From a virus (taxonomy: Duplodnaviria > Caudoviricetes), in IMG/VR virus record IMGVR_UViG_3300033076_001354, positions 93,624 to 157,623 of that record: 64,000 bases of DNA. One strand, 5' to 3'. Every line of letters begins with the position of its first letter. Position 1 is the stretch's first letter. This document shows, piece after piece, positions 6,241-63,875 of this stretch. The notes below the pieces were generated by a model. It saw nothing but the letters and a program-made list of their open reading frames with translations. It was not told the origin of the DNA and did not search any database. A program made the translations under genes and the position numbers.

Positions 6241-7224
6241 ATGGCCACTTTAACCACACGAGACCAATTCAAAGAGTACTGCCTGCGCAAGCTCGGCAAG
6301 CCGGTCATCGAGATCAACGTCGACGACGACCAAGTCGAAGATCGCATCGACGAAGCCCTGAAGTACTACTACGACTACCACTTCGACGGCACCGAGAAGC
6401 AGTTCTATCGCCACATCTTTCAGGCCAGCGACTTCCCCGACGTGGTTAAAGAGGTCATGGTCTACGACGGTGGAACCGGATACTCAAACACAGACACCGT
6501 AACGATCACGGCGGCTTCAGGCGATACGTCTGGCACAGGCGCGACTGCTACCCTTACGACTTACGCGAACGGTTCCATCCAAGCTATAAACGTCACGGCG
6601 GTTGGCTCGGGCTATAGACTCGATCCCAATGTTACGATCACAACCGGAACTGGATCCGGCGCAAGCGTTCAAGCGTTCAAGGGCGGATACATTACGATTC
6701 CTCAGAACATAATCGGTGTCGTCAACATATTCGACATCGGTGACTACATCGCGACGAACAACATCTTCAACATTCGCTACCAGATCGCGTTGAACGACCT
6801 GTACACCTTGACCTATCAGTCAATGGTCCCATACTACATGGCGTTCCAACACATCCAACTTCTTGAACAGCTCCTAGTCGGCAAGCAACCGATCCGCTAC
6901 AACAGGAACACGAATCGCCTGTACATCGACGTCAACTGGAATAAGGTCGAAGCCGGCCAGTACTTGGTCGTCGAAGCTTATCAGATCGTCGACCCAGCCA
7001 AGTTCACCGACGTATGGAACGATCGCTGGCTGCAGAGGTACGCGTCGCAGCTCATCAAGAAGCAGTGGGGAACCAACCTGACTAAGTTCAACGGACTGCA
7101 GCTTCCAGGCGGGGTCACCTTCAACGGTGAAAAGATCTATAACGACGCCGAAGCCGACCTTGAGAAGCTCGAGAGCGAAATGGCAGTGTCTTACTCTCTC
7201 CCGTCTTATGACATGATCGGGTGA
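6241..7224 (+). CDS. gp13: Neck protein gp13
   Basis: 'KEYCLRKLGKPVIEINVDDDQVEDRIDEAL...YHFDG', 'KKQWGTNLTKF..LQLPGGVTFNG'; synteny. Confidence 0.93.
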   Translation: MATLTTRDQFKEYCLRKLGKPVIEINVDDDQVEDRIDEALKYYYDYHFDGTEKQFYRHIFQASDFPDVVKEVMVYDGGTGYSNTDTVTITAASGDTSGTGATATLTTYANGSIQAINVTAVGSGYRLDPNVTITTGTGSGASVQAFKGGYITIPQNIIGVVNIFDIGDYIATNNIFNIRYQIALNDLYTLTYQSMVPYYMAFQHIQLLEQLLVGKQPIRYNRNTNRLYIDVNWNKVEAGQYLVVEAYQIVDPAKFTDVWNDRWLQRYASQLIKKQWGTNLTKFNGLQLPGGVTFNGEKIYNDAEADLEKLESEMAVSYSLPSYDMIG

Positions 7225-15027: not shown

Positions 15028-15035
15028 TATAAATA
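15028..15035 (+). promoter_or_regulatory. T4-type late promoter
   Basis: TATAAATA. Confidence 0.85.
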
Positions 15036-15058: not shown

Positions 15059-15283
15059 ATGACTGATATATCTGATATTTTTCACTCAGCGTTCACAAAG
15101 GACGCAGTAGGACTCAAAGCGGCCGTCGACGCAGCCATGACTGCTCGTTCACAGCAGGCAATTGCTGACATAACGGCAGACGTTGCGGCCAGCATGTTTG
15201 GTGTCACAGTGGGTGAAGATTCCTCCGACGAAGAAACAATCGAAGACTCAAGTCAGGAAGAACAAACAGATGAAGCTCTATGA
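15059..15283 (+). CDS. Small acidic prohead core protein (gp67-like position)
   Basis: GGAGG SD then ATG at 15059; acidic C-terminus; position between gp20 and the gp68-like gene. Confidence 0.6.
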   Translation: MTDISDIFHSAFTKDAVGLKAAVDAAMTARSQQAIADITADVAASMFGVTVGEDSSDEETIEDSSQEEQTDEAL

Positions 15284-17288
15284 CAAACTAAAGAAAAGCA
15301 TAACCGAAGTTCAAGAGCCTCTCTCACAGGGTGAGAAGAACTTCAAGGCTCTTCACAACCCAGACTTTAAGAACCTCGTTCCCGGTGTTACCGATCAAGA
15401 GCACCTGTTCAAAGGGCTTCCGCGCAGGGAAGACCCTAAGTCTGCTTCCTATGAAAACTTTAGGGACGACGATGAGTCAACCGAAGCCTATGACAAGACG
15501 ATGAAAGTTAAAGAAGACGAAGAGAAAGACGTCGACATCGACGAAGCTCGGTCGGAGCTTTACATCGGAACAGTTCACAAGGACGATCCCGACTACGATA
15601 AAAAAGTCGGCGAGATGAAGAAGAAAGCGGTCGGCGGGCACCGTGTTCGTGGCCGTGCCCCGCTAGCAAAGTTCAAGCACCTCTATAAGAAGGGTGGTGA
15701 GCTTCATACTATGACTTCACAGGACGTCAAGCCTGAGCACAGCGCGCGAGTCGATGTCTACTCAAGGAAGCCGATGAAGAACGAAGAGGTCGAGCAGGTC
15801 GAAGAGGAGCATCAGTACATTGAGGTGATCAGCAAGACCGGCGCCAAGAGACACGTTAAAGTTCACCCCTCAAAAGCTTTCGCGGCTCTCAATCAATATA
15901 AGAAAGACGGCAACAAAGCCCGCATAGTTTCTAAGAAGTCAATGAAAGAAGACGTTGAGCAGGTCGATGAAGTCCTCACCAAGAAGACTCCAATTGGAAC
16001 TTGGATCTCCGACTTTGTTCACAGCAAGAATCCTAAGTTTGCTGGCAAGAGCAAGAAAGAGCGCATGAAACAAGCTATGGGCGCTTATTACGCCAAGCAG
16101 AGGAATGAATCTTTAAGCATCGAAGAAGCGGCTGAAGACGACTGGGAAGGCCTCATGGCCAAGACCGAATTGTCGGCCATTCGCGACAAGGCTGATAAGT
16201 TGATCTCCATGATCAAGGATTCAGCGGACCTTGAAGCTTGGGTTCAATCAAAGATCGCGTACGCCAAGGTTCAGCTCGACGGCGTCTACGACTATATGAC
16301 CTACAGCGGTGAGCACAAGTCGGACAGCAATGAACCTCAAGATCAGACGTCACCGATGGCCGCCAACTACGCCAACTTTATGAACCGCATGGGTGAAGAG
16401 TTCGTGGTTGAGAAGAAGGGCGACGACGAAGACGAGTCGGATCGCGCTGCCAATAAGAACATCATCAATCAGATGCGCAAAGCCCCGATCGATGGTATGC
16501 ACAAGCTTACTTTCGAGAACGGAAACAAGCACCTTGTCGACCCTAAGCACGTCGCTAAAGCCCTCGAGGTTCACGCGAACACACCGGTCGCCAAGGGCGC
16601 TAAAGAAGACGTGCAGAACGCTCTCGCTCGTTCTCACGAAGATTTCATGCACGTCGTGAAGCACGGCAAGGCTCCAGCTGTAAAGCCGAAGCTTAAGGTT
16701 TCACTCGGCACGATGCGTAAAGAAGATACCGATATGGCAACCCGCGAAAGCGGCAGGAAAGCCCGTGAAGCCATCATGATTACCGGCAAAGACGGCCGTC
16801 CTAAAGTTAAGTACTTCACACCCGCTCGCAAAGAGATCAAGGTGACTTCTGAAGAGCTGAAGGGCAACCAACACAAGATCGACGCCAACCACAACGGTAA
16901 GATCGACGGACAAGACTTCAAGATCCTTCGCGGAAAGAAGAAGAAAGTTCAAGAAGCCGAAGAGATGACGGCGGCCAACGTTGCTAAAGCTGCAGCCACT
17001 CAGACTCAGTTCGGTGTGGTCGGCAGCAAGAATATGCAGCAGGACAGCATCGATAAGATGAAGTCTGATCCTCTTGCGTCGAAAGAAAAAGTTGAGCTTC
17101 CTCCGACTCAGGGCAACAAGCCGATCGGCGGAGACACTCAGACCCATCCGAACGTTGCTGAAGAAATTCTATTAAATAAACTATACGACAGTTTATCAGA
17201 ACAAAACAAGGCGAAGTTCGACGCCATGCTTGAGACCGACGAAGGTATTGAGTATCTCTTGAACTTCGCTAGGGAGCAGGGACTATAA
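15270..17288 (+). CDS. Large modular prohead core/internal head protein (gp68-like position)
   Basis: Position between gp67-like gene and gp21; repeated acidic linkers (IDE, EEVEQVEE, EDVEQVDE, IEE, VVE, VQE); C-terminal 'LYDSLSEQNKAKF' resembles prohead core protein ends. Confidence 0.7.
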   Translation: MKLYDKLKKSITEVQEPLSQGEKNFKALHNPDFKNLVPGVTDQEHLFKGLPRREDPKSASYENFRDDDESTEAYDKTMKVKEDEEKDVDIDEARSELYIGTVHKDDPDYDKKVGEMKKKAVGGHRVRGRAPLAKFKHLYKKGGELHTMTSQDVKPEHSARVDVYSRKPMKNEEVEQVEEEHQYIEVISKTGAKRHVKVHPSKAFAALNQYKKDGNKARIVSKKSMKEDVEQVDEVLTKKTPIGTWISDFVHSKNPKFAGKSKKERMKQAMGAYYAKQRNESLSIEEAAEDDWEGLMAKTELSAIRDKADKLISMIKDSADLEAWVQSKIAYAKVQLDGVYDYMTYSGEHKSDSNEPQDQTSPMAANYANFMNRMGEEFVVEKKGDDEDESDRAANKNIINQMRKAPIDGMHKLTFENGNKHLVDPKHVAKALEVHANTPVAKGAKEDVQNALARSHEDFMHVVKHGKAPAVKPKLKVSLGTMRKEDTDMATRESGRKAREAIMITGKDGRPKVKYFTPARKEIKVTSEELKGNQHKIDANHNGKIDGQDFKILRGKKKKVQEAEEMTAANVAKAAATQTQFGVVGSKNMQQDSIDKMKSDPLASKEKVELPPTQGNKPIGGDTQTHPNVAEEILLNKLYDSLSEQNKAKFDAMLETDEGIEYLLNFAREQGL

Positions 17289-17546: not shown

Positions 17547-18206
17547 ATGAAGCTCATAGCAGAACTCAACGAGTCGGTAAAGGTAATCACCGAAGAGGGT
17601 GTAGAAGGAAAGAAGAACCTCTACATCCACGGCCCTTTCATTCAGACCGAAGTAAAGAATCGCAACGGTCGCATGTATCGTCGTGAGTCGGTAGCCCGTG
17701 AAGTCAATAGGTACAACGAGGAATACGTTCAGAAGGGTCGCGCGCTCGGCGAGCTTGGTCACCCCGACGGTCCTTCACTAAACCTTGACCGCGTATCTCA
17801 TAAGATCGTGTCGTTGGTTCCGGAAGGCAACGACTTCATCGGCAAGGCTCAGATCCTTTCAACTCCGATGGGTGAGATCGCCCGCAACCTCATCGAGTCC
17901 GGCGTTCAGCTTGGCGTCTCGACCCGCGGTATGGGTTCGCTAAAAGAAGTCAACGGAGTCCAAGTCGTTCAAGACGACTTCTACCTCGCGACCGCGGCCG
18001 ACATCGTGGCCGACCCGTCCGCCCCGAATGCTTTCGTCAACGGCATCATGGAGGGCGTCGATTGGGTCTGGGACAACGGCCTGCTGAAAGCCCAAGAGCT
18101 TGAGAAAGCAAAACAAAAGATTGAAGAGTCCGCCCGCAAGGTGAACAAGAAGGAGCTGGAAGAGGCTCAACTCCGGATCTTCAAGCATTTCATTTCAAAT
18201 CTTTGA
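17547..18206 (+). CDS. gp21: Prohead protease gp21
   Basis: 'NRNGRMY', 'ALGELGHP', 'GVSTRGMGSL', 'DIVADPSAP'. Confidence 0.96.
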   Translation: MKLIAELNESVKVITEEGVEGKKNLYIHGPFIQTEVKNRNGRMYRRESVAREVNRYNEEYVQKGRALGELGHPDGPSLNLDRVSHKIVSLVPEGNDFIGKAQILSTPMGEIARNLIESGVQLGVSTRGMGSLKEVNGVQVVQDDFYLATAADIVADPSAPNAFVNGIMEGVDWVWDNGLLKAQELEKAKQKIEESARKVNKKELEEAQLRIFKHFISNL

Positions 18207-38297: not shown

Positions 38298-38716
38298 ACC
38301 CCTTCGACTTCGTCAACGCGATAAACACGACCAAGAAAGACCTGATCCGCGACTCAGAGAACCCTGAGCTCGCGGAAAAGTCGTACAACCCGTTCCTCAT
38401 CAATCGGGCCCTGTCCTACTTCATCGACACGATCCTGTACGCGAACGAGATGAACGTTCACAATACGGCTGAAAAACAGCTGCAAAACGACTATCTTATA
38501 AATAGTATTAGGAAAGGTAAGCGTTTCTCGAAGTGGGCGAAGGCCATCGAGGAACCTGATGTTCAGTGCGTGCAGGAATTCTACAAGATAAGCTATAGAC
38601 GGGCTCTTGAAGTCTATGGTGTCCTTACGAAAGAACAGATCGACCTTATAAAAGAAAAGTTAATAAAAGGCGGTACTGATGTTCAATCTAAGCCAACTAG
38701 TCGAGGTTCGACTTAG
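38294..38716 (+). CDS. gp62: Clamp loader small subunit gp62
   Basis: 'Y.PF.INR.LS...DT..YANEMN', 'R.FSKW'. Confidence 0.92.
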   Translation: MNPFDFVNAINTTKKDLIRDSENPELAEKSYNPFLINRALSYFIDTILYANEMNVHNTAEKQLQNDYLINSIRKGKRFSKWAKAIEEPDVQCVQEFYKISYRRALEVYGVLTKEQIDLIKEKLIKGGTDVQSKPTSRGST

Positions 38717-39071: not shown

Positions 39072-39835
39072 AATATAAGTCGGTCTTTGTGTCCGACATC
39101 CACCTAGGAACTCGTATGTCGCAGGCAGATGAGTTCCTTGACTTTATGAAGACGTTTGACTGCGACAACCTATACTTAGTGGGTGACATCGTCGACGGTT
39201 GGGCCATGAACAACGGATTCTATTGGCCGCAGTCACACAACGACGTGGTTCAAAAGATACTCAGGCGCGCCCGCAAGGGGACAAACGTCTTTTACATTCC
39301 AGGAAATCACGACGAGTTTCTACGCGGATTCTGTGACCATCAGTTCGGCAGCATCACCCTATGCGACCAGATTATACACGTCGGTCTAGATGGAAAGAAG
39401 TACTTGGTGATCCATGGCGACCAGTTCGATGTCGTTATAAACCACGCGAAGTGGCTGTCGCACCTAGGGTCGTGGGCCTACGACTTTAGCATAATCTTCA
39501 ACGTCTTTGTAAATAAGCTTAGGTCGCGACTCAACCTAAGACCATGGTCGCTCAGCGCGTGGCTAAAGTATAAGGTAAAGAAAGCCGTTAACTTTATAGG
39601 TAGCTATGAAAAAACTCTATCAGAATATGCGGGTAGTTTACGCGTTGACGGTATTATTTGTGGTCATATCCACCATGCTAATCAAAGAGATGTTATGGGC
39701 ACTGCGTACCTCAACTGCGGCGATTGGGTCGAGACTTGCTCGGCGATTGTCGAACACATGAACGGGAACTTTGAAGTGATCTTCTGGAAAAAGCCTAATC
39801 TTTTCAATGGGTTAGAAGATGAAAATAACGGTTGA
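39032..39835 (+). CDS. Metallophosphoesterase, UDP-2,3-diacylglucosamine hydrolase (LpxH)-like
   Basis: SDIHLG, GDIVD, GNHD, HGD, GHIH, N.GDWVE. Confidence 0.85.
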   Translation: MEPSDEVHDREPIKYKSVFVSDIHLGTRMSQADEFLDFMKTFDCDNLYLVGDIVDGWAMNNGFYWPQSHNDVVQKILRRARKGTNVFYIPGNHDEFLRGFCDHQFGSITLCDQIIHVGLDGKKYLVIHGDQFDVVINHAKWLSHLGSWAYDFSIIFNVFVNKLRSRLNLRPWSLSAWLKYKVKKAVNFIGSYEKTLSEYAGSLRVDGIICGHIHHANQRDVMGTAYLNCGDWVETCSAIVEHMNGNFEVIFWKKPNLFNGLEDENNG

Positions 39836-63422: not shown

Positions 63423-63447
63423 GACCCCTCCCTATAAATGCCAGAAA

Positions 63448-63528
63448 AACCGTTATTTTTCAATGGGTTAGCCCTTGGAAAATAACGGTTGACATTTCTC
63501 CGAAATTGTTATAAGATCTAGATAATGG
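63448..63528 (+). promoter_or_regulatory. Early promoter cassette, copy 5
   Basis: 12-bp inverted repeat AACCGTTATTTT/AAAATAACGGTT flanking TTTCAATGGGTTA; TTGACA(63489)-17-TAAGAT-CTAGATAATGG. Confidence 0.8.
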
Positions 63529-63551
63529 CAAATCAAACGGAGACCTATATT

Positions 63552-63875
63552 ATGAGAACTTCAAGCTATCGATGCACCGTTCAAAGCCTTGATGACAAAG
63601 TGATCGAGATGTATCGCACCCAAGCCAAGATCGGGAACATGTTCGGTCGCGCTTACGACGCCTCGCTTCTCGCTTCTGGTTCAAAGACTCCACGTTATAC
63701 CAAGCGTCTACGTGTTCGCGTTCGTGGTCGTCTTGGTAAGAACAGCCCGTACGCCCACCTCTACAAAAAAGGCGGACCGCATTATCAATGGACTTCACAG
63801 GACATTCGTCCCGAGCACGCTTCGCGCTTCGACGTCTACGTCCACGAAGTCTCAGTGCCATTCACGGGGCGGTGA
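63552..63875 (+). CDS. Basic early protein sharing a domain with the prohead core protein
   Basis: GGAG SD; 'RVRGR...HLYKKGG....TSQD.(R/K)PEH..R.DVY' also present near 15642-15761. Confidence 0.75.
   Translation: MRTSSYRCTVQSLDDKVIEMYRTQAKIGNMFGRAYDASLLASGSKTPRYTKRLRVRVRGRLGKNSPYAHLYKKGGPHYQWTSQDIRPEHASRFDVYVHEVSVPFTGR

Follow-up and report, generated by a model that had tools for sequence, protein, structure and literature searches.

Can a phage carry one small domain twice, as a free early gene and as a module of a protein made for the prohead core, and, if so, what would the two copies do? The question is raised by a stretch of 64,000 nucleotides (hereinafter the window) that forms the last 64 kb of a 157,623-bp IMG/VR record (genome G000, rated 98% complete). 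Its source is an uncultured T4-like myovirus, as judged from the T4-type portal, Peptidase_S77 prohead protease, gp22-type scaffold and gp23 capsid protein that Pfam and PHROGs recover in the window. The capsid protein is 63–69% identical to those of Stenotrophomonas phage DLP6 and of Pelagibacter and Methylophilales myophages, and searches of cultured phage records gave no close relative for the region under study.

An earlier note on this DNA had placed the same domain in a free gene and in a module of the capsid core protein, and both ORFs are where it put them. The free copy is a basic protein of 107 aa (pI 10.3; 63552..63875, plus strand), identified as an ORF with homologues and a confident AlphaFold2 model; the other is a segment (15546..15782, plus strand; residues 93–171, ARSELYIGT...VDVYSRKPMK) of a 672-aa protein in the prohead-core slot. 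A BLASTP comparison of the two ORFs finds 24/43 identities (56%; E=4e-12 for the pair), and profile-profile comparison with hhalign of 38 free proteins against 7 modules gives a probability of 99.1% (E=1.3e-18; 72 columns), values that rule out chance similarity. Since the profile alignment spans free residues 1–98 against module residues 1–74, with a single 26-residue gap in the helix region, the module is a shortened version of the whole free protein and not merely a shared motif; the homology is thus wider than the roughly 40 residues originally quoted. The two start in register, with ARSELYIGTV of the module opposite MRTSSYRCTV of the free protein. Both are basic, the module having a mass of about 9 kDa and a pI of 9.9 without its downstream linker or 9.3 with it. 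The similarity that had been noted in the DNA is also real: 63711–63842 and 15642–15764 agree at 79 positions, about 64% of the bases aligned, with one exact run of 13 nt, GACTTCACAGGAC, and many synonymous differences. A six-frame search of the 157,623-bp record found exactly these two copies and no third.

The free gene starts at ATG 63552, as first given, with GGAG 9 nt upstream. An alternative ATG at 63525 was rejected, as it falls in a leader, CTAGATAATGG, common to five promoter cassettes with real starts 15–25 nt beyond it. These cassettes are near-identical, all on the plus strand (21652, 39832, 41359, 41619 and 63489), and consist of TTGACATTT-N-ATAAGAT followed by the conserved leader; the four others each precede a small ORF whose protein start lies 15–25 nt past the leader. 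The cassette of the free gene (63489..63535, plus strand) reads as a sigma-70-type early promoter, TTGACA-N17-TAAGAT, with a 10/12 match to the consensus, and is almost invariant in the relatives L006, L007 and L009, whose proteins are only about 82% identical. This match and this near-invariance together support an early-type promoter served by the host polymerase, so that the strong early promoter proposed in the earlier note is borne out as far as sequence can tell. Between pstS and the promoter lies a conserved inverted repeat, AAAACCGTTATTTT ... AAAATAACGGTT (63441..63488, plus strand), read directly in the sequence and abutting the −35 box. It is fully kept in L006, L007 and L009, beyond the conservation of the flanking coding sequence, and may serve as an operator, an UP-like element or a weak terminator; its 3′ arm, GAAAATAACGG, recurs just upstream of the −35 box in the cassettes at 39832, 41619 and 63489. 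We also considered a late promoter for the free gene, as TATAAATg at 63433–63440, directly after pstS, matches 7/8 of the late motif TATAAATA described below. As three close relatives lack the 14-bp insertion in which this site lies, and as the site is without the final A present at the other six on the plus strand, we treat it as probably a chance occurrence.

The second copy lies in a head-gene cluster with the order portal, a 78-aa gp67-like gene (weak match to a 'prohead' PHROG, E=0.003), the 672-aa core gene, an 82-aa ORF, the Peptidase_S77 protease, gp22 and gp23, an order that is identical in the relative L008 and in other long-form loci. The protease (17547..18206, plus strand; PF03420, E=7e-33; phrog_207, E=5e-84) belongs to the T4 gp21 family and is presumed to be the processing enzyme for the core protein. 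Its start is probably ATG 17547; the resulting N-terminus, MKLIAELNE (17547–17575), with I-A-E and L-N-E motifs, recalls LIE-9, the candidate self-cleavage site of T4 gp21 (PMC9026906). Six of the seven plus-strand TATAAAT sites in the window read TATAAATA, and five of these lie ≤60 nt ahead of the genes at 6241, 10808, 13465 and 15047 and of the gp22 start, the sixth being at 38497. The motif precedes the sheath, portal and gp22 scaffold genes, and a motif scan places one copy at 15028..15035 (plus strand), upstream of both the gp67-like and the core gene, which points to late expression of the core gene with the head genes. In the cultured relatives DLP6 (L077, 2715–4241) and Mosig (L078, 2484–3984), the slot between portal and protease holds 4–5 small separate hypothetical genes; this slot appears to be hyperplastic across the group.

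By gene order, the core gene (15270..17288, plus strand) is a late gene in the prohead-core slot, and its product is a chain of basic and acidic modules beginning MKLYDKLKK.... We take ATG 15270 as the likely start, as an alternative ORF from TTG 15183 (701 aa) overlaps the upstream gene. Neither the 672-aa nor the 701-aa version belongs to a Pfam or PHROG family at E≤0.01; there is no similarity to gp68, with which only the gene position agrees, and cultured phage records hold no real match, only a weak one of 62 residues. Its closest relatives are three proteins about 83% identical to it and a 500-aa protein, 35% identical, with a different front half. Against Pfam no module of this late, multi-module protein has a recognizable enzymatic domain. 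One module contains an EF-hand-like loop, DANHNGKIDGQD (window 16758–16793; core residues about 497–508), kept in relatives as DANHNGK/R(I/V)DG. The N-terminus carries a leader, MKLYDKLKKSITE↓V (↓ denotes a candidate cut), resembling the capsid-targeting sequence (CTS) of T4, and related long proteins begin with MKMYDLLKKSLKE↓, MSMYDKLKRTLAE↓ and MAIKFNQFQSKIEE↓. T4 gp21 cuts after the Glu of L/I-x-E, and a 10-residue leader with such an end targets cargo to the core (PMC9026906); the T4 CTS is MKTYQEFIAE (PMC8442874). The present leaders share with it M-K-x-Y and the terminal I/L-x-E, and that of the window protein is 3 residues longer.

A scan of viral contigs yielded 61 loci, among them about 45 with free genes of 81–171 aa and 13 with module-bearing ORFs of up to 1058 aa (complete ones, 636–1058 aa; some are cut by contig ends). 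The 13 module loci come from several lineages, and all lie beside portal and/or protease genes. An exception to this setting is L069 (record G002, 171,728 bp, rated 100% complete), where a 547-aa module protein is away from the portal gene. It adjoins a DUF6321 protein starting MKSFKTFIAE↓G and a 288-aa protein with the same linker. The order at L069 (827–7711) is a 756-aa protein (starting MKFLDFLEE, with an HxGH nucleotidyltransferase-like N-terminus and a Zeta_toxin/AAA_33 kinase domain), the 181-aa DUF6321 protein, the 547-aa module protein and the 288-aa protein with EEVEQVDE. MKSFKTFIAE↓G comes close to the T4 capsid-targeting sequence, and the genes together have the look of a head-cargo cluster. 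In two other diverged polyproteins (L038, 5317–7950; L041, 5245–7152), a module that begins with an AT-hook-like core, KRGRPRK, directly follows an EEVELDE↓A linker.

The boundaries of the module bear on whether it could be freed from the chain. The earlier note had it bracketed by putative gp21 sites, and both motifs are present, the upstream one being kept across lineages. Upstream, comparison of junctions identifies D-I-D-E↓A (15534..15548, plus strand) as a candidate gp21-type site, a hydrophobic-x-Glu followed by Ala; downstream lies the acidic NEEVEQVEE (15783..15806, plus strand), a candidate cleavage linker (V-E-E↓E) by comparison, which is disordered in the module model (pLDDT below 50, residues 81–87). 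The junction before the module reads [I/L/M]-[D/E]-E↓[A/G] in 11/11 long forms compared (two further ones, P0168 and P0169, have LDE↓A and LEE↓S), and this despite differences in what precedes it, be it an N-terminal region, a KPKLYSDTMKK module, a KSKKQRMKQALAAYY module or others. It always falls 4–6 residues ahead of the conserved Tyr in the forms compared, so that the predicted cut product (ARSELY...) would be in register with the free protein (MRTSSY...). This match, read from sequence, is the strongest indirect argument that what is released from the chain may be the equivalent of the free protein. In 8/11 long forms the module is followed by EEVEQV[E/D/N]E, and the broader motif E-[E/D]-x-E-[Q/L]-[V/I/L]-[D/E/N]-E occurs 1–4 times per protein in 10/11 of them and nowhere else in the window.

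We give about an even chance to the following reading, which draws on sequence and on analogy with T4: the late chain would be T4-style cargo, targeted to the prohead, cut by the protease into small and mostly basic proteins, and injected, with one of its modules an old paralogue of an early protein. The CTS-like leader (MKLY...SITE↓) would take the 672-aa late protein into the prohead core, where the gp21-type protease would cut it at hydrophobic-x-Glu junctions, releasing a basic product of about 9–10 kDa that starts ARSELY.... Remaining associated with the packaged DNA, this product would reach the cell together with it. Host RNA polymerase would then transcribe the free 107-aa copy from its strong sigma-70-type early promoter, and the free copy would add a related activity once early transcription starts, a logic that would be that of T4 Alt (injected) and ModA/ModB (early). 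The domain itself may bind nucleic acid, acting on the entering phage DNA or on a conserved host machine. The analysis shows the homology, the size of the family, the gene contexts, the promoter motifs, the conserved junctions and the predicted fold, and infers packaging, cleavage, injection, timing and the binding of nucleic acid.

The free family is large and was found in phage DNA only. A word-indexed search gave 20 metagenome homologues of 94–121 aa, and an exhaustive profile search gave 593 clusters at 50% identity; 248 of them fall below E=1e-10, and nearly all of the 593 are of 80–130 aa. The free protein has 0 matches in Pfam, all 38 family members tested have 0 in PHROGs, and a pattern scan of cellular genomes, one for each of 185,579 species, did not find the family. 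Among cultured phages, tblastn with the free protein and two distant members found it only in Pseudoalteromonas phage XG4, as two tandem copies. In that record (PP712099.1, Pseudoalteromonas phage vB_Psh_XG4), the tandem pair is present twice, inverted and with equal scores, at 69.2–73.0 kb and 87.9–91.7 kb, so that this unannotated 'UNVERIFIED_ORG' entry has either an inverted duplication or an artefact of assembly. Free genes are found within arrays of small ORFs and close to genes of early/middle type for replication and repair (RNase H, clamp loader, helicase, PhoH and ThyX), with no constant partner, the commonest neighbour family being found in 8/33 loci. At some loci the free gene is downstream of RNase H, which raised the possibility that it is T4 DsbA; this was rejected, as there is no PHROG match and none of the matched BFVD entries is named DsbA. 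The conserved core of the family is R-x-R-V-x-V-[R/K]-G-R-L-G-K-N-N-P ... Y ... G-G ... I-[R/K]-x-E-H-A-x-R-x-D-V-Y, in which R60, G62, D94 and Y96 are invariant and the LGKNNP loop is kept in at least 90% of members.

An AlphaFold2 model of the free protein, built from a 38-sequence alignment (mean pLDDT 94.1, pTM 0.79), shows strand 6–10, helix 16–42, strand 49–60, a short helix and strand 92–103 (beta-alpha-beta-helix-beta), in which a three-stranded sheet is predicted to pack on a helix. In the module model (pLDDT 84.7), the strand-helix-strand-helix-strand order is the same and the helix is shorter. Foldseek against the PDB gave a best match of only E=1.0 for the free-protein model, and a wide, Foldseek-independent scan of 48,161 representative chains reached no more than Z=3.9. 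The best score of the free-family sequence profile against all PDB chains (E=0.61, L18Ae) and the scores of 0.77 to Hsp33 fragments in the ESM Atlas were treated as noise. The three best BFVD matches are uncharacterized viral entries, 23–36% identical in sequence to the query, one of them a 385-aa protein. The predicted fold is hence one for which we found no solved counterpart, which does not by itself make the fold new.

As to activity, strand periodicity in the model indicates that R52/R54/R56/R58/R60 and R92/D94/Y96 should lie on the sheet face away from the helix. Nucleic-acid binding on this exposed face is the most likely activity, judged from charge and strand periodicity; it is favoured by the charge of the domain, the basic sheet face predicted for it, the AT-hook-like KRGRPRK modules of sister chains and the conservation across very different phages. 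The last of these also points away from any single defence system as the target and towards a ligand that is itself conserved. The earlier note had thought of an anti-defence or host-takeover role; PADLOC has 0 matches for the free domain and thus lends the anti-defence part no backing, which leaves it as a possible role.

The history of the two copies bears on whether they could be one effector delivered twice, as the earlier note had it. A maximum-likelihood tree was built from 59 free sequences and 13 modules. In it, nine RVRGRAP-type modules including that of the window form one clade (bootstrap 100, SH-aLRT 97), and the window's free gene falls in a different one (96/93). The remaining four modules (P0024, P0164, P0168 and P0169) have no supported placement, and a single origin of all modules is possible. 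These four keep the full RGRLGK(N/D)NP loop; the nine-module clade has lost the LGKNNP loop and 26 helix residues, and a search at 47–153 aa found no free-standing protein of the module type. The separate clades, the lost residues and the absence of such a free-standing form together indicate that the fusion is old and the window module derived. A recent copy, or gene conversion between the two loci, is rejected, given the different well-supported clades and the many synonymous differences in the DNA.

The pairing of the two forms is loose. Free gene and module occur together in the window genome (G000, 98% complete) and in G003 (70% complete); G002 (100% complete) has the module without a free gene, and most members of the free family have no module nearby. 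Given the module without a free copy in G002 and the many phages with the free gene alone, delivery in two waves is not obligatory. The claim of one effector delivered twice is uncertain: T4 offers a precedent in Alt against ModA/ModB, but against it stand the loss of the LGKNNP loop and 26 helix residues from the module and the lack of a free copy in G002. With these residues gone, the module's activity may differ or be purely structural. The further idea of a general process by which the core polyprotein takes up early genes was not supported: one module has a paralogue in G000 and G003 and none has in G002. As the rest of the long proteins is without paralogues in these three genomes, recruitment is documented for this one domain only.

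An alternative that we consider unlikely but to be taken seriously is that the module is nothing but a structural or DNA-condensing part of the core. Like T4 gp67, gp68 and gp22, it would be fragmented and for the most part expelled, or stay as a counter-ion, without acting as an injected effector, and the free protein, with which it would have only an old fold in common, would do an unrelated job, for instance assisting replication or transcription by binding DNA or RNA. The split of the two forms is old, the module clade departs from the free family at the very loop that this family conserves best, and G002 has a module with no free copy; moreover, the core gene occupies the position of gp67/gp68, the core proteins of T4 are broken up and cleared (PMC9026906), and the free genes lie among replication and repair genes. 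Yet the module retains 30 invariant positions across diverged lineages and a compact, confidently predicted fold (pLDDT 85), more constraint than a disposable spacer needs; the basal modules keep the full RGRLGKNNP motif, and the modules are basic like the T4 internal proteins, which stay in the head (PMC8442874).

Turning to the linkers, it is improbable, in our estimate, that the long protein stays uncleaved as a multi-domain internal or ejection 'polyvalent protein', with EEVEQVxE as flexible spacers and the module acting within a 76-kDa protein. Packaged polyvalent multi-domain proteins are indeed widespread (PMC5512222), the Val at P3 of EEVEQVEE falls outside the strict L/I rule of T4 L/I-x-E sites, and L038 has no downstream linker. 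Set against these are the upstream junction, which always follows the gp21 rule of hydrophobic-x-Glu and then a small residue whatever module precedes, and the closeness of the core gene to the Peptidase_S77 protease gene. In addition, the capsid protein of the window has L-F-E↓T at residue 59, about where the Pfam mature-Gp23 model begins (residue 79). Module order also varies between lineages with the same linker kept at each joint: in L041 the WISDFVHS and DWEG modules stand ahead of the domain, and in the window protein both come after it, a difference that implies shuffling of linker-bounded modules.

Small beta-sheet domains often pair edge to edge, and both forms are present together in G000 and G003, but an interaction between them, as a heteromer or with the free copy regulating or chaperoning the packaged one instead of repeating its activity, is very improbable, since G002 has the module only, most family members have no module and the presumed times of expression differ (an early promoter for the free gene, a late one for the core gene).

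A more ambitious version of the packaged-and-injected reading, which we offer tentatively and would sooner doubt than accept, is that the domain is a new-fold nucleic-acid-binding or host-takeover effector delivered in two waves by T4-like aquatic phages, and that the polyproteins of the slot are an evolvable cargo platform into which whole small proteins are plugged via a protease-site linker, shuffled and released at their native N-terminus. Were the module indeed cut out and injected, this phage lineage would use the Alt/ModA-ModB strategy in a new form: a stand-alone protein would have been built into a capsid-cargo chain with the head protease regenerating its native N-terminal register, a concrete example of T4-like phages widening their injected arsenal. 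For the loading of T4-type heads with several proteins, the conserved linker could then offer a rule of design. In any case, a large unnamed family, found in phage DNA only and with a confidently predicted fold for which no solved counterpart was found, is an obvious target for structure determination and binding studies. What appears to be new here, going by sequence and model, is the presence of both forms in one genome, the match of their N-terminal registers, the size of the family and the unmatched predicted fold; the papers searched gave no description of linker-jointed chains in the portal-protease slot of T4-like phages.

[quoted passage not shown] Here too, as far as the genes tell, one domain family occurs twice in a T4-type genome, with one copy in a late core gene and the other as an early-type free gene. 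There is, however, no relation in sequence or fold; the domain here is of about 80–107 aa and non-enzymatic in appearance, and whereas Alt is a single protein with trimmed ends, the putative packaged copy is one module of a multi-module chain.

[quoted passage not shown] The present proteins resemble them, by sequence features, in their basic modules and perhaps in a CTS-like leader ending in I-x-E. No sequence match to the T4 internal proteins was found, nor does any of them, including the IPI structure, appear among the fold matches listed. In T4 they are separate genes whose products are cut once, whereas here the modules are strung together in one gene with repeated acidic linkers. The slot between gene 20 and gene 21 is that of T4 gp67 and gp68, core proteins that are cut up, mostly expelled and not injected (PMC9026906); the gene-68 product of T4 is small, unlike the 672-aa, modular protein of the window, which has no detectable similarity to it.

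Multi-domain chains are known from the polyvalent proteins of phages and conjugative elements (Iyer et al. 2017), which are widespread and packaged with phage DNA (PMC5512222), and from the inner-body/ejection chains of giant, phiKZ-like phages, which are cut after Glu by a gp21-like protease (PMC5512222, PMC9026906). The domains of such chains also occur singly or in other combinations, and the core protein resembles them in being a multi-module chain in a late context. Polyvalent proteins combine disparate enzymatic domains, often with a peptidase of their own, whereas the modules here are small and mostly unannotated, and, unlike in the polyvalent proteins, one conserved linker joins them, matching the rule of the head protease.
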